The position numbers and the translations under genes were made by a program. From Patescibacteria group bacterium (GTDB lineage: Bacteria; Patescibacteriota; Patescibacteriia; 2-12-FULL-57-11), in assembly GCA_004299275.1 (NCBI GenBank), contig SCSU01000052.1:1-51014 (forward strand): a stretch of 51,014 nt of DNA, given 5' to 3'. The notes below the pieces were generated by a model. It ran no database searches. It saw only the letters and a list, made by a program, of their open reading frames with translations, and was not told where the DNA came from. This document shows positions 9,448 through 46,409 of this stretch, piece by piece (the stretch's first letter is position 1; every line of letters starts with the position of its first letter).

Positions 9448-9461
9448 TCGGGCACTTGCCT

Positions 9462-11342
9462 ATGGCTATATTGGAAATTTTTGACCGGCGGATCGGCGCC
9501 GGCGAGCCCGTGCTCGTCATGGCCGAGATCGGCGTCAATCATCAGGGCAAGCTTGATTTGGCGCATCGCTTGATTGACGCTGCCGCCGACGCCGGAGTCG
9601 ACGTCGTCAAATTTCAAAAACGGAGCTTGTCCACGCTGTATCAGGAAAAATTGCTGGAAAATCCCAATCTCGGGGAGCAGGCTTTCCAGTATCTGCTGCC
9701 GATTTTGCGCGAGGCCGAGTTTGGCGAAAATGAATTTCGCGAATTGATGTCCCATGCCCGGAGCCGCGGGGTGCGGTTTTTATGCACGCCGTTTGACGAG
9801 GAGAGCGTTGACTTTCTAGAACGGCTGGGCGTGGTCGCCTACAAAGTGGCTTCGGCCGATCTGACCAACAATCTGCTGCTCCAGAAAATCGCTCGGGCAG
9901 GGAAGCCGATGCTCGTCTCCACGGCCATGGCGACGAGCGAAGAGATCCAGGGCGCGGTTGATTTTTTGCGTTCTTTGGGCGCGCGTTTCGCCCTGCTCCA
10001 CTGTGTGGCGGCCTATCCCGCGCCGCCCGAGGATTTGAATTTGCGCTTTATCACCGAACTGGAGCGGCGTTTCCCCGAGGTGCCCATCGGTTATTCTGGC
10101 CACGAACGCGGCATCGCCTGCACTTTGGCCGCGGTGTCGCTGGGCGCGGCGGTGGTCGAACGGCACATTACGCTCGACCGCTCCATGGAGGGGCCGGACC
10201 ACGCCGCCAGCTTGGAGCCGGACGATTTCCGCGCCATGGTCGCGATGATCCGCGAGATTGACCGGGCGTTGGGCGTGCCGCAGAAGATTTTGAGCCACAT
10301 GGAGCAGGCCAATCGCAAGGTCTTGGCTAAATCGCTGGTAGCGGCGCAAGACATCGCGGCTGGCACCGTGATTACCCGCGAGCTAGTTGCGGCTAAGAGT
10401 CCGGCCAAGGGTCTGCCGCCCTACCGTCTGCCGGAGCTACTCGGCCGTCGGACAACTCGCGCGATACCGCGCGATTCCTGCCTCTCACTCGAGGATTTCG
10501 GCGCGCCAACAGCGAGCTTTGCGCGGCCAGATTACCGGACGCCGTGGGCGCTCAAAACCCGTTTTTCCGAAATTGATTTTGCCGAACAGTTTGAGCCGCC
10601 GATGTTTGAATTCCACCTGTCGGACAAAGACATTGACGAACCATTCGTTCCCAAAAAACATTACCGCCAGCGCTTATTCGCGCACGCGCCGGATTACATG
10701 GGCCGGCGGGTCAAGGATCTGGCATCGCTCGATGATGACCACTGGGAGCGCTCCATCGCGTTTTGCCAGCAGGTGATTGACAAAGTGCATAGTTTAGCGC
10801 CATTTTTTGAGGGGCCGCCGGCTTTAGTGATCCACGTCGGCGGGGCCTCAATGGACCCGGTTTGTAAAAATCGGGAACGCCTGCTCGCGCGCTCGCTTGC
10901 GGCCTTCCGCCGGCTTCGGACGGACGGGATTATTTTGCTTCCGGAAAATTTGCCGCCCCACGGCTGGTATTTTTCCGGCCAGTGGTTTAACCACATTTTC
11001 GCCGAGGCCGAGGAGGTCGTTAACTTTGCCCGTGAATTGGGGCTGCGCATCTGTTTTGACACGGCCCACGCTCGCCTTGCCTGCAACGTTCTAAAAAAAG
11101 ATTACCGCCGGTTCGTGGAAACCGTCGCGCCGCTGACCGATTACGTGCAGGTATCCGACGCGGCGGGGTTCTCCCGCGAGGCGCTCCAGATCGGCGAGGG
11201 CGAAATTGATTTTGCCGAAACTTTTGATATCCTCAGACGCCACCCCGGCTGGCGCTGGTGCCCGGAGATTTGGGAAGGGCACCTCAATGGTTACCGCGGA
11301 TTTTTAACCGCGCTCGAACGGCTCAAGCCGTTTATCCCCTAA
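9462..11342 (+). CDS. neuB: N-acetylneuraminate synthase (NeuB) family protein with SAF domain and C-terminal xylose-isomerase-like TIM barrel
   Basis: AEIGVNHQG, VKFQKR, YKVASAD, HCVAAYP, GYSGHE, ERHITLDR, GPDHAASLEP; C-terminal PENLPP, ICFDTAH, SDA, PEIWEGH. Confidence 0.9.
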   Translation: MAILEIFDRRIGAGEPVLVMAEIGVNHQGKLDLAHRLIDAAADAGVDVVKFQKRSLSTLYQEKLLENPNLGEQAFQYLLPILREAEFGENEFRELMSHARSRGVRFLCTPFDEESVDFLERLGVVAYKVASADLTNNLLLQKIARAGKPMLVSTAMATSEEIQGAVDFLRSLGARFALLHCVAAYPAPPEDLNLRFITELERRFPEVPIGYSGHERGIACTLAAVSLGAAVVERHITLDRSMEGPDHAASLEPDDFRAMVAMIREIDRALGVPQKILSHMEQANRKVLAKSLVAAQDIAAGTVITRELVAAKSPAKGLPPYRLPELLGRRTTRAIPRDSCLSLEDFGAPTASFARPDYRTPWALKTRFSEIDFAEQFEPPMFEFHLSDKDIDEPFVPKKHYRQRLFAHAPDYMGRRVKDLASLDDDHWERSIAFCQQVIDKVHSLAPFFEGPPALVIHVGGASMDPVCKNRERLLARSLAAFRRLRTDGIILLPENLPPHGWYFSGQWFNHIFAEAEEVVNFARELGLRICFDTAHARLACNVLKKDYRRFVETVAPLTDYVQVSDAAGFSREALQIGEGEIDFAETFDILRRHPGWRWCPEIWEGHLNGYRGFLTALERLKPFIP

Positions 11343-15630: not shown

Positions 15631-16680
15631 ATGTCCAGACAAATGATGATCGGCTCGACGCCGGTCGGCGACGGTTTGCCCTGCTACCTCATCGCTGAAG
15701 CCGGGGTTAACCATAACGGCGACCCAGAGATCGCCCGTGCGCTTATAGACCGCGCGGCGGAGGTTAAAGCCAGCGCGGTCAAATTTCAAAAACGCACGAT
15801 CCCCGAGATTTTGGTGCGCTCGGCGCTGGAGAAACCTTATTTGAGTTCCACCGCGCTCGGGCCGACTTACGGCGAGCACCGGGAAAAACTGGAACTCTCC
15901 GAGGCGGTTTATTACAAACTTTTCGCGGCCGCGGCGGAGCGGGGCATCCACTTTTTGGCCAGCGGCTGGGACAAAACCGCGGTGGACTTTTTGGATAGCT
16001 TGGGCGTGCCGGCTTTTAAGGCCGCCTCAGCCGATGTTACCAACCTGCCGCTGCTTGAGCATATTGCCCGCAAGAGTAAGCCCGTCATTCTTTCCACCGG
16101 CATGAGTTCAGTAGAGGAGATTGACGAAGCCGTAGAGACCGTGCTCGCGCACAACGAAAATTTAATTCTTCTCCACTGCGTTTCCACTTACCCCTCGCCC
16201 AACGACAGCATCAACCTCCGGGTGATGGAGACGCTCCGCCGCCGCTACAACTTGCCCATCGGCTACTCCGGTCATGAGCGCGGTATCGCGATTTCCGTCG
16301 CGGCGCGCGCGCTCGGCGCGGTGGTGATAGAAAGGCATTTTACTCTGGACCGCGCGATGCGCGGACCTGACCACGCCGCCTCGCTCGAGGTCGCCGGCCT
16401 CCAAAAACTGGTCCAGTATGTCCGTACCGTGGAGCAGGCCTTGGGCTCGGCCGAAAAGGGCATCCAAAGCGATGAGGCGCCGATGAGGAACAAATTGGCC
16501 AAGAGCGTGGCCAGCGCCGCGCGGATTCCCGCCGGCGCCGTAATCAGCGCGGCGATGCTCACGATCAAGGGTCCCGGCGACGGCCTGAAGCCCAAATATC
16601 TCCGCGCGCTTATCGGCAAAATCGCGCAGCAGGACATCGAGGCCGATACGCTGATTCCGCCGGAGGCGCTCCATTGGTAG
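15631..16680 (+). CDS. neuB: N-acetylneuraminate synthase (NeuB) family protein with SAF domain
   Basis: IAEAGVNHNG, VKFQKR, LSTGMS, HCVSTYP, GYSGHE, ERHFTLDR, GPDHAASL, KGPGDGL. Confidence 0.92.
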   Translation: MSRQMMIGSTPVGDGLPCYLIAEAGVNHNGDPEIARALIDRAAEVKASAVKFQKRTIPEILVRSALEKPYLSSTALGPTYGEHREKLELSEAVYYKLFAAAAERGIHFLASGWDKTAVDFLDSLGVPAFKAASADVTNLPLLEHIARKSKPVILSTGMSSVEEIDEAVETVLAHNENLILLHCVSTYPSPNDSINLRVMETLRRRYNLPIGYSGHERGIAISVAARALGAVVIERHFTLDRAMRGPDHAASLEVAGLQKLVQYVRTVEQALGSAEKGIQSDEAPMRNKLAKSVASAARIPAGAVISAAMLTIKGPGDGLKPKYLRALIGKIAQQDIEADTLIPPEALHW

Positions 16681-40298: not shown

Positions 40299-41114
40299 AT
40301 GAGAAAGTCGTGCCGGACGATGACTAATTGGTTGGCGCTCACTTTGCTTGGAGCGCTGGTTTTGACCGGTTGGGATTGTTCTGTTTCCCTGCCCCCAACC
40401 AATCAAGCGCACATTCGCGCGAATGTGCGCTTGAAGGAAGAAGTTTTGCCGCCTTACGCCAGCCGGCGTTTTTATACTATAGAGAATAATGAGACGGCGA
40501 ATTTTCTTGTCCTAAAAATTGAGCCGGCGCTTTGGTCCTGGGGTCTGGCGGAAGACCCGGCAAAACCCAAGTCCGTGGCCGCCTGGCGTGAGGCGAGCGG
40601 CGCGACAGCGGTTTTGAACGCTGCCTATTTTACCGAGAGCGGCGAGCCCAGCGGTTACTGGAAAAATACGCCGACAGTTCCCGTGAGCGCCATATCTTGG
40701 CCGAAGAAGGGGAGCGGTTACACCGGCACGGTGATGATTAAAGACGGCGCGCTCGCGCTCGCCTATCTTCCGTCAGACGCACCGGATCCGGCGAAATCTG
40801 ACGCGATTTTTCTCACCTTCCCGACGCTCATTGCCGACGGCCGGCCGCTGGTGGAAAAAGAAACCGGTCTCAAAAGCCGGCGCACGGCTCTGGCTGAAGA
40901 CCAGAGCGGCACGGACTACATTATTATTACTGAGGAGGGAATTGTTTCGCTCCACCAGTTCTCCCGCTGGCTTTCCGAGCAACCGGAGCGTTTTACGCGC
41001 GCCGTAAATCTGGACGGCGGGCCGTCAACCGGCCTGTCGCTCAAGGACGGCGGAGAGGCGCTGGAAATACCTTCCGCGCCAGTGCCGAATGTGCTCCTCT
41101 TGCGACGAAGGTAG
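40299..41114 (+). CDS. Phosphodiester glycosidase (NAGPA-like) family exported protein
   Basis: Signal/lipoprotein-like N-terminus, LNAAYF, RRTALA, AVNLDGGPST. Confidence 0.8.
   Translation: MRKSCRTMTNWLALTLLGALVLTGWDCSVSLPPTNQAHIRANVRLKEEVLPPYASRRFYTIENNETANFLVLKIEPALWSWGLAEDPAKPKSVAAWREASGATAVLNAAYFTESGEPSGYWKNTPTVPVSAISWPKKGSGYTGTVMIKDGALALAYLPSDAPDPAKSDAIFLTFPTLIADGRPLVEKETGLKSRRTALAEDQSGTDYIIITEEGIVSLHQFSRWLSEQPERFTRAVNLDGGPSTGLSLKDGGEALEIPSAPVPNVLLLRRR
40403..40434. repeat. Palindrome family B, full 32-bp copy inside CDS
   Basis: tcaagcgcacattcgcgcgaatgtgcgcttga (QAHIRANVRL). Confidence 0.88.
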
Positions 41115-41115
41115 T

Positions 41116-41256
41116 CCCTCGACCTGCCTACTCCGCCAGTTGGCGGATTCGGCAGGCAGGCAAGCTCGGGAACTATAATGAACCCAACCACGCCCCGACG
41201 TAACGTCGGGGCGGTATTCGGGCGAACGTAATAAAGTCTCCGAGTGTAATCGAGGG
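41116..41256. repeat. Composite nested hairpin repeat cluster
   Basis: Outer ccctcga..ctcggg / ccgag..tcgaggg arms enclosing cctgcct..aggcagg (itself enclosing tccgccagttggcgga) and ccccgacgtaacgtcgggg. Confidence 0.7.
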
Positions 41257-41291
41257 GCCGCCTTTTATTTTCCTTCGTTTGATTTCCTCCG

Positions 41292-41320
41292 TTGCCCTGG
41301 TCAGGTTCGTGTGATATAAA
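41292..41320 (+). promoter_or_regulatory. Putative extended -10 sigma70 promoter (TTGCCC-N17-TATAAA, TG motif); strong SD AGGAGG before ATG 41359
   Basis: Direct sequence match; ggcaggaggaggatgaaATG. Confidence 0.55.
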
Positions 41321-41358
41321 TTTCGCGCTCGTTAGATGACGGGCAGGAGGAGGATGAA

Positions 41359-42381
41359 ATGAGGAGTCGGCAGTCAGCCGAGACAGCCGGAAAGCTGGCG
41401 CTTCGGCGCATCGAGGAGCTGGACAGCGACCCGCGGGAAAGACTCGGCGAGTTGAGCCGCTACCTGCGGCACTTCCGCGGCTATCCGATTCTCCGCGAGC
41501 AGGCGGATTTCGACGCGCTCCACCGGCAATACCGGTTGGCCAAGGGTGAGCAAAAGACGCGTGCCCGCGACTTGCTGGTCTACGGCAACATCCGGCTCGT
41601 GGTCTGGGTGGCGCGGCGCTACGTTGGGCGAGGTGTGCCGCTCTCTGACCTGCTACAGGAGGGCGTGCTCGGAGTGATGCGAGCGATTGACCTCTTTGAT
41701 CAGTCGCGAGGCACGCGTTTCAGCTCCTATGCCGTGTCGAGCATCCGTCGGCGCATCCGTCGGGTGATTGAAGACGCCAACGAGCGCGGCGCCTTCCGGA
41801 TTCCGAAACATTTGCAGACGAAGATGCGTCAGATTTCGCAGGTGGAAAACCATCTGACGAAAATCCTCGGCCGCCCGGCCACGAATCGCGAGATCCTCGA
41901 CCGCTTGGGTGAATCGCCGGCAAAGACCGCGCTGACGGTGCGGATTGCCGACATTCTTTACTACCAGCGGCGGTGGAAACGCGGCAACGGCAAACAGTCG
42001 CTGGACGCGCCGCTCCTCGCGGAAGGGCTCGATACGCGCACGCTCCATGACGTGGTCGGTGACCTCGGGAAGAATACCGAGGTTCTTCTCGAGGCGCAGA
42101 TGCTCCTCGAAAATCACGAACGCGCGCTCGAGAATCTGGTGCGGAGCGCGGCGCGGGTAAACGCCCGCGACGGGATGCTCCTGAGCAAACGGTTGGGGCT
42201 CGGCAATTTCGAGTCAGCAACGCTCAAGGAGACCGGCGCGGAGGTCGGGGTATCGCGCGAGCGGATTCGGCAGATCGAACGGTGCGCGGCGGCTCGAGTT
42301 GGGCTGACCGTGAGTGAGCTCTGGGAAATCGTCGCCGCGCGCGAACGGCTGGTGAAGCTCGTCTCACTGCTCGCCGGTTAA
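41359..42381 (+). CDS. Divergent RpoD-like sigma-70 family factor
   Basis: Region 1.2-like YLRHFRGYPIL; region 2 NIRLVVWVARRY..RG..DLLQEG.LG.MRAIDLFD.SRG.RFSSYA; region 3 SLDAPL; region 4 TLKETG..VGVSRERIRQIE. Confidence 0.88.
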   Translation: MRSRQSAETAGKLALRRIEELDSDPRERLGELSRYLRHFRGYPILREQADFDALHRQYRLAKGEQKTRARDLLVYGNIRLVVWVARRYVGRGVPLSDLLQEGVLGVMRAIDLFDQSRGTRFSSYAVSSIRRRIRRVIEDANERGAFRIPKHLQTKMRQISQVENHLTKILGRPATNREILDRLGESPAKTALTVRIADILYYQRRWKRGNGKQSLDAPLLAEGLDTRTLHDVVGDLGKNTEVLLEAQMLLENHERALENLVRSAARVNARDGMLLSKRLGLGNFESATLKETGAEVGVSRERIRQIERCAAARVGLTVSELWEIVAARERLVKLVSLLAG

Positions 42382-42406
42382 GAGCGACGCCTGTCGCTCT
42401 TTTTTT
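42380..42406 (+). terminator. Rho-independent terminator
   Basis: aagagcgac-gcct-gtcgctctt hairpin running into a T7 tract right after the stop. Confidence 0.8.
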
Positions 42407-42478
42407 GTTGGACAACGGCGGCCAGAAGTTGTAGCGTAGCGGCGGGTTCTTTACCGACGACCCGGGAAGGAGGATTCA

Positions 42479-43900
42479 ATGGAGGTTTTTTGCCAGATCG
42501 CCGAAGGCGATGTGTCCGAGGATTTCTGCAGCCGCGAACAGGGGAAACCGGAGTGTCAGGGGTGCGTGGCGCCGACTCGTCGTTGTACGGCCTGCAAAAA
42601 ATCCGGCCACCTGGTTGAGCCGCGCCTGGGGCTCTGCGCCGTCTGTCAGCGGGCGAAGGGCAACGGAACAGTAGAGCAGCGCCGGAGCGTGGAGCACCTC
42701 CTCGAGGAACGAACGGCAGCCTTGCGCAAGATTTCGTCTTCGCGCCGGTTCTCGGCCGCCGCTGAACCCGTAGTTGCGCCAGAACCGGCAACCATCGGTT
42801 CGTCAGTCATCGAGGCGATTGATGGGCTGAGTGATCGCAAACGGGAGGTGCTCCGGCTGCTGCTCGGACTGGACGGCGGCGGCGTCCGCACACTGCCGGA
42901 GACGGCCGAAAAGCTTGGCGTCTCCCCGCGCGCGATTTACATGGCGAAGTACGAAGCCGTTAGTTTGCTCCGCGGCCGCGTCTCGGAGCAGGAGCTCGAG
43001 GCGATCAGGCGTTCTATCCCGCGGGGCAAGCGGGAGCGGAGGCGGGCGGTTCCAGCGCCGCCGCCTATGAGCGCCAGTCCGGTCCAAGAGCCAGTTCCGG
43101 TATCGGTTCCGCTCGCTGACGGAGTTGTCGCCATTTCTCAATCGTCAGCGATGCCAGCGGCGGCGAAAGCAACGAAGGCGACTTTGTCGCCGGCGGCGAG
43201 TAAGCCGGAACGCGGACCAAAGGCGGCCGACGCCGCGGCGAAACCGTTGCGAGAGGGCAGAGGGACCGTTTCCCGTTTGCGCGCCAACGACTTGTCCGCG
43301 GCGGTCATCAAGGCGATAGGTCGGTTGCCGGAATTGCAGGCGCGGATTATTCGTCTGCGTCTCGGGATCGGCATTGCCCGGAAGCGTTACCTCCACGAGA
43401 TTGCCAAGGAACTGTGTGTCTCCGAACGCACAGTTCTTCATCACCAGGAGCGGGCGACCGTTGCTCTGCGTCAGTTGCTCACGGACGACGCTTACGCGCG
43501 CGTGTTTAGGATCCTGCGCAGCAGACCGGATCGGCACGAAGCCGGTCGCCGGAGAAGTCACGGGGTCGCCACGAGCGCTCGCCGCGCTGACCAAAACACC
43601 CGGTTTTTCTCCGACGATGATAGGCAGGCGATGCAGAAGCTGCTTTCCCTGCCTGACGCGGGGAAGGGAGAGGTTTTCACTGATCAACGGAGTGAGTCTT
43701 TCGGTTCGGCCGCCGCGATCAGCCGACTGCTCCAGGTTGACCCGCGTCGCCTCAAGTCGTTCCTCACCGTCCACAAGCGCCGCATCCGCCTGCGTTCCGC
43801 GCGGAACGCCAAGGGGGAGACGATACTCTGTTGGTCGTTCACGGATATACAGGGGATCCTCACCTCGTGGATCAGGGCGCAGTTGGCGAAGTCCTCTTAG
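42479..43900 (+). CDS. Uncharacterised protein: 8-Cys Zn-binding N-terminus + two sigma-70 region 4 HTH domains + possible C-terminal HTH
   Basis: C5,C17,CxxC,CxxC,CxxC; LSDRKREVLRLLLGLDGGGVRTLPETAEKLGVS; LPELQARIIRLRLGIG...LHEIAKELCVSERTV; SD gaaggagg upstream. Confidence 0.75.
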   Translation: MEVFCQIAEGDVSEDFCSREQGKPECQGCVAPTRRCTACKKSGHLVEPRLGLCAVCQRAKGNGTVEQRRSVEHLLEERTAALRKISSSRRFSAAAEPVVAPEPATIGSSVIEAIDGLSDRKREVLRLLLGLDGGGVRTLPETAEKLGVSPRAIYMAKYEAVSLLRGRVSEQELEAIRRSIPRGKRERRRAVPAPPPMSASPVQEPVPVSVPLADGVVAISQSSAMPAAAKATKATLSPAASKPERGPKAADAAAKPLREGRGTVSRLRANDLSAAVIKAIGRLPELQARIIRLRLGIGIARKRYLHEIAKELCVSERTVLHHQERATVALRQLLTDDAYARVFRILRSRPDRHEAGRRRSHGVATSARRADQNTRFFSDDDRQAMQKLLSLPDAGKGEVFTDQRSESFGSAAAISRLLQVDPRRLKSFLTVHKRRIRLRSARNAKGETILCWSFTDIQGILTSWIRAQLAKSS

Positions 43901-43905
43901 TTCAC

Positions 43906-43940
43906 CGCAGGCGGCGCAGACGCGCAACCTGCGTTTTTTT
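43906..43940 (+). terminator. Putative Rho-independent terminator
   Basis: cgcagg...cctgcg stem followed by T7. Confidence 0.6.
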
Positions 43941-44023
43941 ATTTTTAAGTCATCCGCGTTTTTTGGCGGAGTCAAATTTTTTCCAGCTATTCTTTACTCA
44001 CTATCCTGCCTTTGGCGGGACCC

Positions 44024-44046
44024 CGCCCCGACGTAACGTCGGGGTG
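44024..44046. repeat. ccccgacgtaacgtcgggg palindrome, second copy (first at 41191-41213)
   Basis: Identical 19-bp core on both sides of the sigma island. Confidence 0.85.
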
Positions 44047-44062
44047 GCTCACGACCAACGAC

Positions 44063-44131
44063 TCACCTTCGATATTCAAAAATCATCACTTTGCCGCCGG
44101 CGATCGGCCAAACCGCGTCGGCGGTTTTTTG
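44063..44131 (-). pseudogene. Diverged duplicate of the last 23 codons of the 44280-46409 gene
   Basis: QKTADAVWPIAGGKVMIFEYRR* versus QKTADSFWSIASGKVMIFEYRR*; 10 mismatches in 69 nt by manual alignment. Confidence 0.8.
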
Positions 44132-44204
44132 CCCGCGCCAGTGCCGAATGTGCTCATATTAAAAAAAGTGAGTCGTGAGTTGTGAGTCGCGGGTAGTTTT
44201 TTCT

Positions 44205-44240
44205 CTCCGCCAAAAAACGCTATAGCATTTTTTGGCGGAG
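44205..44240. repeat. Hairpin ctccgccaaaaaa...ttttttggcggag flanked by inverted heptamer arrays
   Basis: 13-bp stem; gtgagtcgtga (44168) is complementary to tcacgactcac (44273). Confidence 0.65.
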
Positions 44241-44279
44241 TCGAATTTTTTCCACTACACACTACTCTCTATTCACGAC

Positions 44280-46409
44280 TCACCTTCGGTATTCAAATAT
44301 CATCACCTTGCCGCTGGCGATTGACCAAAAGCTGTCGGCGGTTTTTTGCGCTTCGGCATCGAGTTGCGGAAAGCGTTTCCAGTAGTCGTGGAGCATCAGG
44401 TAAACCGTATCCACGCCGTAATCGTCCAGCACTTTTTGCATCAGCTCGCGCGTCGGACCATTGTATGTCGCCTCGAGATAGTAGCCGTAAAGCTTGAGAC
44501 TGCCAGATGGGTGTGAGTAATAGAATTCGTCTTTAACGTAGCGGGAAAAACCGTAGCGCCAGATTTCCGCCGCCGCCGCGGTTTGGTTGGCGAGAACAAC
44601 ATAACTGCCGCTTGCCCGTGTGTGGAGGAAATCCACGGCTTCCACGGTCGCCGCGGAAACGCTCCGGTTGCCGGTTTTTTCTTCCGGGTCAACTCGGGGA
44701 TAGGCCAGATAGACTGCGGCGGGGACGGCGAGCGACAAGGCCAGCGCGAGAGCCAGACGGCGGTAGGGAGTTCGCAAAAATTTTTCGGCAATGAGGATTG
44801 CTCCCGAGAGAGCGAGAGGAAAAAGGAAGATTCCGGCGAGGCCGACAAAGCGGACGGGGAAAATCGCTTGTTCATAACCGATAATGCCCGGGAGTTTGAC
44901 GGCAGCGGCAAGCAGGAAGCCGCCCGCCGCGGTCGCGAGCGCGCCGGCGATGAAGACGCCGGCTAGCCGACGTTCACCCTGCTTCTTTCGGAGCGCGAAA
45001 AGTAAGGCGAGCAGCAGCACGATTAGCGGCAAATAAGTCCGCGCTGAATAGATGAGCGTGCGTCCGGGAGAAAAGGTGCGCAAGGTTGGCGCCGGAAAGA
45101 CGGTTTGCGCGAGCTGGGTGAGCCGTTCGCGGCCGCCTTGGAGCGAGAGCGCTGGCGCGAGGCGGCTTTGGGAGAAAAAGGCCGCGGTGGGGAAGATGAG
45201 CAATGCCGCGAGGCAGGTGGTAACGAATCCTCGGCGGAGCCGAGGATTTTTTACGCGCGCTCGGGAGTAGGCGAGCGCGAGCAGGAGCAAGGCGGGAACG
45301 CCGGCGAGTGGATGGACGGCGAGCGCGGCTAGCGCGGCGGCAAGAGGTAAGAGCCAGCGTTCTTTTTGCTGGATGGCGCGGAAGGCAAAAACCGCCGCAA
45401 GCAGGGCGAGGGCATTGGCGATGCCTTGCGGCGTGGTAGCGATAAAGTCTGCAAGCGGTCCGAAGGCGGCCAATAAAATTGCCAAGGGGAGAGAGGTGGT
45501 AAGTAGAGCGGCAGAGACGAGCGCGAGCCAGCCGACAGCCGGACCGGCAAAACGATTGACCTCATGGAGCGGCAGAGCGGTCAGCCGCGAGAACGACACT
45601 AAATCAACATAGGCGCCGATGTAGTAGGGTGTTTTGGGAAGCACGGCGCCGTTCGCGGCAATCTCGCGCATGGCCGCCTCGTGGATAAAGGGGTCAAAGC
45701 CGTAGCCGATTTTATAAATCGCGGCGCCGGCAAAAAGTCCGAGACCGAGAGTGAATGCGGCGAGAATGGCGGCGAGCCGCCGTTCGGTGAGTTTTGTTCC
45801 GAGGGTGACAGCGGCAAAGACAGCCAAGCCGAGGAGCGGCAAAAATCGCGGCGAGACAACTTCCCATGGCGTGCGGATGGCTTCGACTGTTCCCGAGTTA
45901 AAAAGAATTACGGCCGCTAAAACGAGTGAGGTTAAACCAATAAGAGCGACAAGCAATTCAAGTTTCGAGGTCCCGAGTTTCGAGATTGGATCTCCCCCGC
46001 CTACGCTAAAGCTTCCTCCTTCGCTTGCGCTACGGCGGACAGGTCGGCGGGCAGGCGTGGAGATCCAATCTCGTCCAGCTGCACCCCAAGCAAAAAAACC
46101 GGCAACCGCGCCGAGCGCGAGTAAGGCGACGATTGCGAACAAATTCCATTGCCAGAGGTAATAGACAGCCGTGGCGGCAATGGTCCACGAGGCGACGACC
46201 AAGAGCGCGCCGCGAATAACCAAGGTCAGACCTCCTGCAGGAGGTCTGACCTTGGACGCCACCGCGCTGGAAAGCAAAAACCCGTACAAAAGCATTGCCG
46301 GCACTCCCAAAAAAGGCGTATGAAACACAGCGGCATTCAAGGCCAGAGCGGCTACCGCGAGCGCCACCCCCATGCTATAGTGTTTGCGATTAAGGCGCAG
46401 AAATTTCAT
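44280..46409 (-). CDS. Large polytopic membrane protein, probable GT-C fold
   Basis: 709 aa, many hydrophobic segments, GYGFDPFIH loop motif, soluble C-terminal domain; carries two in-frame repeat insertions. Confidence 0.6.
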   Translation of the reverse strand: MKFLRLNRKHYSMGVALAVAALALNAAVFHTPFLGVPAMLLYGFLLSSAVASKVRPPAGGLTLVIRGALLVVASWTIAATAVYYLWQWNLFAIVALLALGAVAGFFAWGAAGRDWISTPARRPVRRSASEGGSFSVGGGDPISKLGTSKLELLVALIGLTSLVLAAVILFNSGTVEAIRTPWEVVSPRFLPLLGLAVFAAVTLGTKLTERRLAAILAAFTLGLGLFAGAAIYKIGYGFDPFIHEAAMREIAANGAVLPKTPYYIGAYVDLVSFSRLTALPLHEVNRFAGPAVGWLALVSAALLTTSLPLAILLAAFGPLADFIATTPQGIANALALLAAVFAFRAIQQKERWLLPLAAALAALAVHPLAGVPALLLLALAYSRARVKNPRLRRGFVTTCLAALLIFPTAAFFSQSRLAPALSLQGGRERLTQLAQTVFPAPTLRTFSPGRTLIYSARTYLPLIVLLLALLFALRKKQGERRLAGVFIAGALATAAGGFLLAAAVKLPGIIGYEQAIFPVRFVGLAGIFLFPLALSGAILIAEKFLRTPYRRLALALALSLAVPAAVYLAYPRVDPEEKTGNRSVSAATVEAVDFLHTRASGSYVVLANQTAAAAEIWRYGFSRYVKDEFYYSHPSGSLKLYGYYLEATYNGPTRELMQKVLDDYGVDTVYLMLHDYWKRFPQLDAEAQKTADSFWSIASGKVMIFEYRR
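45981..46073. repeat. Triple-nested in-frame repeat (family A 33 bp containing family D 30 bp containing family D 30 bp)
   Basis: cgagattggatctcc[cccgcctacgctaaagcttc[ctccttcgcttgcgctacggcggacaggtc]ggcgggcagg]cgt ggagatccaatctcg = 93 bp. Confidence 0.85.
46220..46255. repeat. Palindromic element family A variant (36-bp perfect palindrome, in frame)
   Basis: ccaaggtcagacctcctgcaggaggtctgaccttgg (SKVRPPAGGLTLV). Confidence 0.88.

Follow-up and report, generated by a model that had tools for sequence, protein, structure and literature searches.

Zinc-binding anti-sigma (ZAS) factors such as RsrA and ChrR, which pair with extracytoplasmic function (ECF) sigma factors, carry an N-terminal cysteine-rich zinc domain and are encoded directly downstream of their sigma, often with overlapping reading frames. 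Activators of the WhiB7 type, members of the Wbl family, join a four-cysteine metal-cluster domain that binds sigma region 4 to a DNA-binding tail. Bacteria of the Patescibacteria radiation have genomes of ~1 Mb with very few recognisable regulators, and their transcription control is largely unknown. Here we describe a gene from a Patescibacteria group bacterium whose genome assembly comprises 1.0 Mb in 73 contigs. The gene lies on contig C67, the 51,014-nucleotide stretch that was analysed as a whole and that we call the window, and its product, the target, joins an eight-cysteine module to several DNA-binding domains. Genes that encode this module are linked to a dedicated alternative sigma factor, itself fast-evolving, through position, phylogeny and joint presence or absence. 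We tentatively read the target as a zinc-module DNA-binding partner of that sigma, a reading in which our confidence falls somewhat short of even.

The target resembles the ZAS anti-sigmas in gene order: in the window and at five further single-module loci, the module gene lies directly downstream of a sigma gene. Unlike them, it has no H-x3-C-x2-C motif, and its first 60 residues contain a single histidine, H44, which precedes C53 by eight residues. Pfam lists no zf-HC2 match in it up to E = 1. Its module is modelled as beta-hairpins, knuckles and one long helix, unlike the helical anti-sigma domain, and its C-terminal parts are DNA-binding domains rather than sensors or membrane anchors. The adjoining sigma aligns with RpoS/RpoD models over regions 2-4 and is not of the ECF type. 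Both motif and fold therefore depart from the ZAS pattern, and the target is not a ZAS anti-sigma.

The likeness to WhiB7 and other Wbl proteins is one of logic, since a small, here presumably metal-binding, cysteine-ligated domain stands together with a DNA-binding element alongside a sigma. The Wbl proteins have four cysteines in the arrangement C-Xn-C-X2-C-X5-C, whereas the target has eight, spaced by 11, 8, 2, 6, 2, 13 and 2 residues. Pfam lists no Whib family match in the target up to E = 1; there is no sequence relationship, and the lineage is different.

An uncatalogued eight-cysteine module

The open reading frame at the centre of this study is a real gene for a multi-domain protein, predicted to bind DNA. 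From the N-terminus, the protein consists of the cysteine module, a first sigma-70 region-4 (sigma4) helix-turn-helix (HTH), a linker rich in proline, alanine and serine, a second sigma4 HTH and a putative winged-helix domain that we call X (Table 1). An earlier model-made annotation, the sequence-only reading, had credited the gene with its own Shine-Dalgarno sequence and terminator, and both are borne out by a GGAGG close to the start codon and a terminator-like hairpin behind the gene. Its candidate promoter fared worse. The string TGGACA-N17-TAGCGT does lie at 42409-42437, but a consensus scan of 41100-44400 gave 0 sigma-70-type promoter-like sites and thus leaves the candidate unsupported.

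Table 1. Features of the target gene, its surroundings and related loci. Positions refer to the window unless a locus (L) is named.
Feature	Position	Strand	Details
Partner alternative sigma-70 family gene	41359-42381	+	340 aa; Pfam region 2 E 2.2e-17, region 4 E 1.4e-7, weak region 3
Intrinsic-terminator-like hairpin between sigma gene and target	42380-42401	+	9-pair stem, then T run
Shine-Dalgarno sequence GGAGG	42469-42473	+	5 nt 5' of target ATG, read from sequence
Target open reading frame	42479-43900	+	473 aa, ATG start
Eight-cysteine module	42479-42658 (residues 1-60)	+	C-x11-C-x8-C-x2-C-x6-C-x2-C-x13-C-x2-C; helix then to ~residue 91
First sigma-70 region-4 type HTH	42806-42958 (residues 110-160)	+	Pfam Sigma70_r4_2, 25.9 bits, cut-off 25.7
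Pro/Ala/Ser-rich linker	43019-43264 (residues 181-262)	+	49% P+A+S
Second sigma-70 region-4 HTH	43313-43474 (residues 279-332)	+	Pfam Sigma70_r4, 38.9 bits, cut-off 24.1, E 6e-10
X domain	43625-43876 (residues 383-466)	+	Beta-hairpin, HTH, wing, helix; one copy of repeat family
Intrinsic-terminator-like hairpin 3' of target gene	43918-43936	+	
Direct repeat, 28 nt (93%)	41074-41101 / 44133-44160		Brackets sigma and target pair
Direct repeat, 75 nt (87%)	44058-44132 / 44275-44349		Duplicates 3' end of 709-aa membrane-protein gene
Direct repeat, 30 nt (93%)	43956-43985 / 44225-44254		Near sigma and target pair
DEAH/HA2 helicase-sigma fusion	L026 1123-4872 (genome G362)		1249 aa; regions 2, 3 and 4 C-terminal; divergent from double-module gene
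RNase III gene upstream of sigma	L021 6101-6952		
RNase III gene upstream of sigma	L025 9700-10557		
RNase III gene upstream of sigma	L091 3222-4028		
RNase III gene upstream of sigma	L092 3186-3965		

The eight cysteines that the sequence-only reading counted in the first 56 residues are present at positions 5, 17, 26, 29, 36, 39, 53 and 56, and the only others in the protein are C313 and C451. Known families do not account for this region. Pfam lists none over residues 1-100 up to E = 1, NCBIfam returns only partial matches to sigma models for the target (one superfamily model barely above its cut-off, the specific models far below theirs), and a word-indexed search using the whole protein matched nothing beyond the target itself. 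An exhaustive HMMER search with the target collected 106 proteins at E <= 1e-3. A module profile built from five copies (alignment A1) recognises 77 of the 106, the target included, with 76 other cluster representatives. A tandem pair of modules occurs in 34 of these 76, and the copies total 111. Among the remaining 29 matches, 28 align to the sigma4 region only. The match to P0004 (1872 aa, FAZ1_cons) was rejected as a false positive in which the module profile finds no module. All eight cysteines, Gln21 and Arg34 are invariant in alignment A1 and at least 98% conserved across the 111 copies.

The AlphaFold2 model of the module, made with a 64-row alignment, has a predicted local distance difference test (pLDDT) score of ~90 across residues 1-60. 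The modelled structure combines short beta-hairpins and CxxC knuckles with a long helix beginning at C53/C56. Neither Pfam nor NCBIfam has a family covering the module. A sequence-profile search of the PDB gave no match (best E 0.42), Foldseek against the PDB nothing significant (best E 1.9), and a wide structural search nothing significant either, its best Z score of 4.0 lying mostly over the helix. The viral fold models of BFVD gave nothing significant. PADLOC and PHROGs contain no family for the module, and scans of phage records, plasmid records and IMG/VR did not find it. The listings and abstract openings returned by a full-text literature search carry no description of the module or of the X repeat, and the source names seen for module proteins are only "hypothetical protein". 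We conclude that the module is a conserved, autonomous and previously uncatalogued domain that defines a small family in tiny-genome bacteria. From the cysteine spacing only, it is most likely a binuclear zinc module with two Cys4 sites.

The module is rare. It was found in 10 of 401 species-representative genomes of the target's class and in 2 of 401 of the phylum, the window's own genome (G000) being counted in both. Relatives that bear it include Candidatus Kaiserbacteria and Candidatus Uhrbacteria records. A degenerate DNA-pattern scan gave at least 120 stretches, and all 120 listed were filtered with the module profile: four are clear matches (L056, L091, L092 and the incomplete L157) and 107 have no match. 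Nine weak matches (E 1e-5 to 8.5e-4) were discounted as chance, since any stretch selected by the pattern must contain the core motif. L091 is a 14-kb contig labelled uncultured Gammaproteobacteria bacterium, and its sigma and its module-sigma4 protein cluster tightly with the small-genome lineage (100/99 with L092). The taxonomic label may reflect mis-binning.

Module genes are linked to a dedicated alternative sigma factor

The housekeeping sigma of the window's genome is a 397-aa protein with regions 1.1-4 that adjoins dnaG on contig C7, so the 340-aa sigma of the window is an alternative sigma. The sequence-only reading proposed that target and sigma could form a transcription-control module, and gene order, phylogeny and genome content support the two genes as a unit. 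Fourteen loci had enough flanking sequence for comparison, namely the window, nine from the scan of the class, one from the scan of the phylum and three from the DNA-pattern scan; the incomplete L157 was left out. In 11 of the 14, a sigma-70 family gene adjoins the module gene or is separated from it by no more than one gene. A rough estimate, which takes seven sigma genes in each Mb and a neighbourhood of 6 kb, puts chance adjacency at about 4%. Among loci with a single module, the sigma gene lies directly upstream on the same strand in six of eight (the window, G001, G018, G195, L091 and L092). The stop-to-stop frames of sigma and module gene overlap in four tandem loci (L023, L025, L091 and L092). 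At double-module loci the arrangement is a divergent sigma in four of six.

The sigma phylogeny follows the same division. Among 18 sigmas placed in a maximum-likelihood tree, the six encoded directly upstream of single-module genes, the window's included, form one clade with support of 96/96, and the sigmas of double-module genes fall outside it, in other groups. The sigma of G003 and the Kaiserbacteria sigma make up a separate group (99/95). Branch lengths in this tree are 0.06-0.15 for housekeeping sigmas (n=5) versus 0.46-1.9 for partner sigmas. The window's partner sigma has the longest terminal branch of its clade (1.69). In region 2.3 it reads "YAVSSIRRRI" where relatives keep an aromatic pair or a single tryptophan (WW, NW, HW).

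Genome content tells the same story, with module and partner sigma jointly present or jointly absent in all seven genomes of the window's family. Searched genome-wide with a housekeeping query (E <= 1e-8), G001 and G018 show only two sigma genes each, the housekeeping one and the module-adjacent one. In four genomes of that family that lack the module (two are just 78-79% complete), the partner-sigma profile finds a single match, which scores 226-232 bits. With this profile, the G000 housekeeping sigma reaches 227 bits, the same level as the lone match in the module-less genomes. The sequence-only reading had named homologs that never co-occur with the sigma, and segments that do not score as Sigma70_r4, as the findings that would undo it; the homologs do co-occur with a sigma, and the segments do score.

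Several points weigh against a partnership between target and sigma. Three of the 14 loci (L027, L028 and L029) have no nearby sigma, and the locus counts are not independent, because the loci are related to each other. The hairpin at 42380-42401 separates the sigma gene from the target, so expression of the two may be uncoupled in the window. The window's sigma may itself be degenerate or functionally shifted; its missing aromatic pair and long branch suggest that the local pair might be decaying. The module fold, having no significant match, gives no support for a protein-binding role, and zinc binding is read from the spacing of the cysteines.

The hairpin and the loci that lack a sigma would suit a plainer explanation. 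The target could be an ordinary sequence-specific transcription factor or nucleoid-associated protein whose cysteine module serves zinc-stabilised dimerisation, extra DNA binding, or metal or redox sensing; adjacency to the sigma would then reflect a shared regulon with no direct contact, either because the target gene is transcribed by the sigma or because the target regulates the sigma gene. Each module fusion partner identified so far binds DNA, which agrees with this explanation, as does the tandem module pair, which is reminiscent of DNA-reading zinc fingers. It leaves unexplained the overlapping frames of sigma and module gene, the way in which sigma phylogeny mirrors module subtype and gene arrangement, and the strict joint presence and absence within the family. 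We regard it as possible, though on the unlikely side. The overlapping frames and the mirrored tree favour physical partnership over mere co-regulation, and the target as a partner of its sigma remains our preferred reading.

No 7-mer shared upstream of the six tandem sigma genes stood above chance (1 observed against a shuffled mean of 2.1). The genome of the window contains seven region-2 matches, a high number for a 1-Mb genome. On contig C23 (L167), further sigma genes form a cluster. One encodes 517 aa and includes region 1.1, one encodes an ECF-like sigma of 173 aa, and there is a further region-2/region-4 match; the same stretch encodes a tyrosine integrase, an AbiEii-like toxin and an NYN-domain protein.

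Interchangeable heads and the X repeat

The module occurs with a range of other domains. A Pfam scan at E <= 1e-4 covered the 76 module proteins together with the false positive P0004, 77 in all. FtsK_gamma was recognised in 17 of the 76, Bac_DnaA_C in four and Sigma70_r4 in four, one of which also has DnaA_C. ParB_N with HTH_ParB occurs in two, phage integrase domains in two (P0105 and P0091), GerE in one and weak winged-helix-like matches in two. For 45 proteins no family was recognised. Another genomic member joins the module to an XRE-type HTH. All recognised fusion partners are DNA-binding domains. In the nearest relatives of the target (P0002, P0003, P0006 and P0019), one to three sigma4 copies follow the module. 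What is invariant across the family, and defines it, is the eight-cysteine module and not the sigma4 pair.

Two region-4-like HTHs and a Pro/Ala-rich linker had been called in the target from sequence, together with the absence of sigma region 2, and all three hold. Both HTHs lie above Pfam gathering thresholds and belong to the tetra-helical HTHs of sigma-70 region 4 and LuxR-GerE. The Sigma70_r4 model covers two stretches, the better being residues 279-332, and a six-frame genome search puts the two matches at 42815-42946 and 43313-43474. Pfam lists no Sigma70_r2 in the target up to E = 1, and the seven region-2 matches of the genome all lie elsewhere. Unlike a member of the sigma-70 family, the target has neither region 2 nor region 3, and its sigma4 copies sit in a larger protein with a cysteine module and a putative winged helix. 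The absence of region 2 means that the target is not a sigma factor. Its sigma4 copies are 33% identical to one another. BLAST against the proteins of these loci found only weak matches, to the sigma4 of the L091 module protein and to the adjoining L091 sigma, and against the sigmas of the same genome it found no match. On this comparison, the two are not recent copies of any sigma in the genome.

The sequence-only reading saw in these HTHs a sigma mimic that might bind -35-like elements or the RNA polymerase beta flap. On such a model the stand-alone sigma4 domains would act as a decoy or as an anti-sigma, competing with sigma factors for -35 elements or for the beta-flap tip. In its favour, the target has two bona fide region-4 HTHs but no region 2, the relatives P0002, P0003 and P0006 have as many as three sigma4 copies, and the target gene adjoins a sigma gene. 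The HTHs are real, so that part of the claim stands. The weight placed on them does not: with Sigma70_r4 in so few module proteins and FtsK_gamma, DnaA_C, ParB or GerE in others, sigma4 is dispensable and merely one of many alternative heads, which weakens the mimic reading. The divergence of the two copies and their lack of derivation from any sigma of this genome also speak against it. We consider a sigma mimic very improbable. In the HMMER collection, eight proteins of 303-1706 aa (P0037, P0045, P0051, P0053, P0073, P0084, P0087 and P0095) have at least three sigma-70 region-4-like stretches and no cysteine module; these are arrays of stand-alone sigma4 domains.

The C-terminal segment, previously noted as HTH-like, is a real domain. 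AlphaFold2 models X with a pLDDT of 93.3 as two helices (411-418 and 422-431) followed by a beta-hairpin wing. A jackhmmer search with residues 356-473 found nine tandem copies of X in the C-terminal half of a superfamily 2 (SF2) helicase that adjoins the module gene of G195, and six in the neighbouring helicase of G001. Two to three copies lie at the C-termini of P0002, P0003 and P0006, and one in the module protein of G018. In the window's own genome, the X profile matches the target only. No Pfam family covers X: among 17 repeat copies scanned, MerR_1 appeared in one, at E 0.016, and no other family in any. A PDB sequence match of the X profile to 8vd6, "CAP REPEAT", was dismissed because 8vd6 is a repeat protein and the score adds up five weak matches of 28 residues each.

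The best fold matches of X are winged helices of the excisionase/MerR type (Xis, the N-domain of the terminase small subunit, the N-domain of MerR), with Z scores of 5.0-7.0, a range that the search tool calls middling. They are 6hn7_B (Z 7.0, root-mean-square deviation 3.3, 65 residues aligned), 2kvv (Z 6.4), 4j2n (Z 5.5), 7lxs (Z 5.5), 3gpv (Z 5.4) and 8c3t (Z 5.0). Foldseek gave a best E of 0.077. These matches suggest a DNA-binding winged helix. Unlike its structural neighbours, X has no HTH_17 or MerR Pfam match at threshold, includes an additional beta-hairpin at its N-terminus and, in helicases, is repeated 6-9 times in tandem. It is a second uncatalogued domain and a repeat family. The architecture as a whole is uncatalogued, which supports the earlier claim of a novel one.

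Neighbourhood, proposed relocation and significance

The relatives' loci carry further genes. In G001 and G195, the gene directly downstream of the module gene encodes a ResIII-type helicase with X repeats, and a DEAH/HA2-type helicase lies near the module loci of G001, G003, G447 and G362. At the last of these, helicase and sigma are fused in one protein (Table 1). This fusion and the sharing of X with adjoining helicases tie the neighbourhood together. In four of six tandem loci, the partner sigma is immediately preceded on its own strand by an RNase III gene (Ribonucleas_3_3 and dsrm domains), and a ParB gene is next door in four module loci. The window's pair has no RNase III, helicase or ParB beside it, and no helicase, ParB or integrase was seen in the window.

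Outside the pair, the window is taken up by a cluster for surface-glycan biosynthesis that includes epimerases, many glycosyltransferases, PMT_2 and two NeuB-family genes similar to sialic/nonulosonic acid synthases (9456-11342 and 15631-16680), the first fused to a xylose-isomerase-like TIM barrel. The sigma and target genes have a GC content of 0.636 and 0.638 versus 0.56-0.59 in the flanking genes. Together with the direct repeats (Table 1), this suggests a local insertion or rearrangement. Module location varies among genomes of one family. The 709-aa flank is present in five of five relatives, on contigs other than the module's, and the NAGPA-like flank was not found in five relatives with the single query used. 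The window's pair appears to be a relocated, minimal two-gene version that was displaced into the surface-glycan cluster. A hairpin found on both sides of the pair (41193-41211 and 44026-44044) was rejected as a terminal repeat or cassette boundary, being a genome-wide element. This 19-nt GC-rich palindrome has ~19 sites over many contigs, and at up to one mismatch it gives 14 forward and 16 reverse matches (control 0). It looks like a repetitive extragenic palindromic (REP) or terminator element.

Such signs of movement raise the possibility of a mobile or conflict (defence-like) cassette, a set of sigma, module protein, SF2 helicase and RNase III that would travel between genomes and act on invading or own nucleic acids, in contrast to a housekeeping regulator. 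The patchy spread across class and phylum, the GC-richer pair with duplicated flank fragments around it and the varying location all fit, as do the integrase-domain fusions (P0105 and P0091) and the partial similarity of neighbour helicases to restriction/PbeA-type helicase models. Against it stand the lack of a PADLOC match for the module protein, the absence of the module from the phage, plasmid, IMG/VR and viral fold collections searched, and the absence of an integrase, transposase or tRNA adjoining the window's pair. We find this cassette improbable.

Under the preferred reading, a partner of a dedicated sigma, the target would be a cytoplasmic, multi-headed DNA-binding regulator of a family in Patescibacteria-type bacteria with genomes of ~1 Mb. 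The module may couple the protein to the partner sigma or its holoenzyme, as an adaptor, a co-activator or an anti-sigma-like partner. The two sigma4 HTHs and the winged helix of X would anchor it on DNA, probably at several short sites joined through the flexible linker. The window's pair would be the minimal version of a larger neighbourhood found in relatives, where the sigma and the module protein are accompanied by RNase III and by an SF2 helicase with X repeats. We speculate further, as a possibility that we would not call likely, that this is an undescribed sigma-coupled system of transcription control in Patescibacteria. In such a system the binuclear zinc module would be a universal adaptor that docks varied heads (sigma4, FtsK-gamma, DnaA-C, ParB, XRE or winged helix) on a dedicated sigma or holoenzyme, and the system would also include RNase III and the SF2 helicase with its array of X repeats.

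A sigma with a co-encoded partner is a known kind of arrangement; here the partner is built from two uncatalogued domains. An odd single open reading frame becomes a new cysteine module in at least 76 sequence clusters, a new putative winged-helix repeat shared with helicases, and a gene pair with a dedicated sigma. In two relatives, no sigma other than the partner and the housekeeping one was detected. Should the module dock on the sigma, sigma adaptors or anti-sigmas would gain a new class; otherwise the module would still be a new zinc domain of DNA-binding proteins, worth a family entry.

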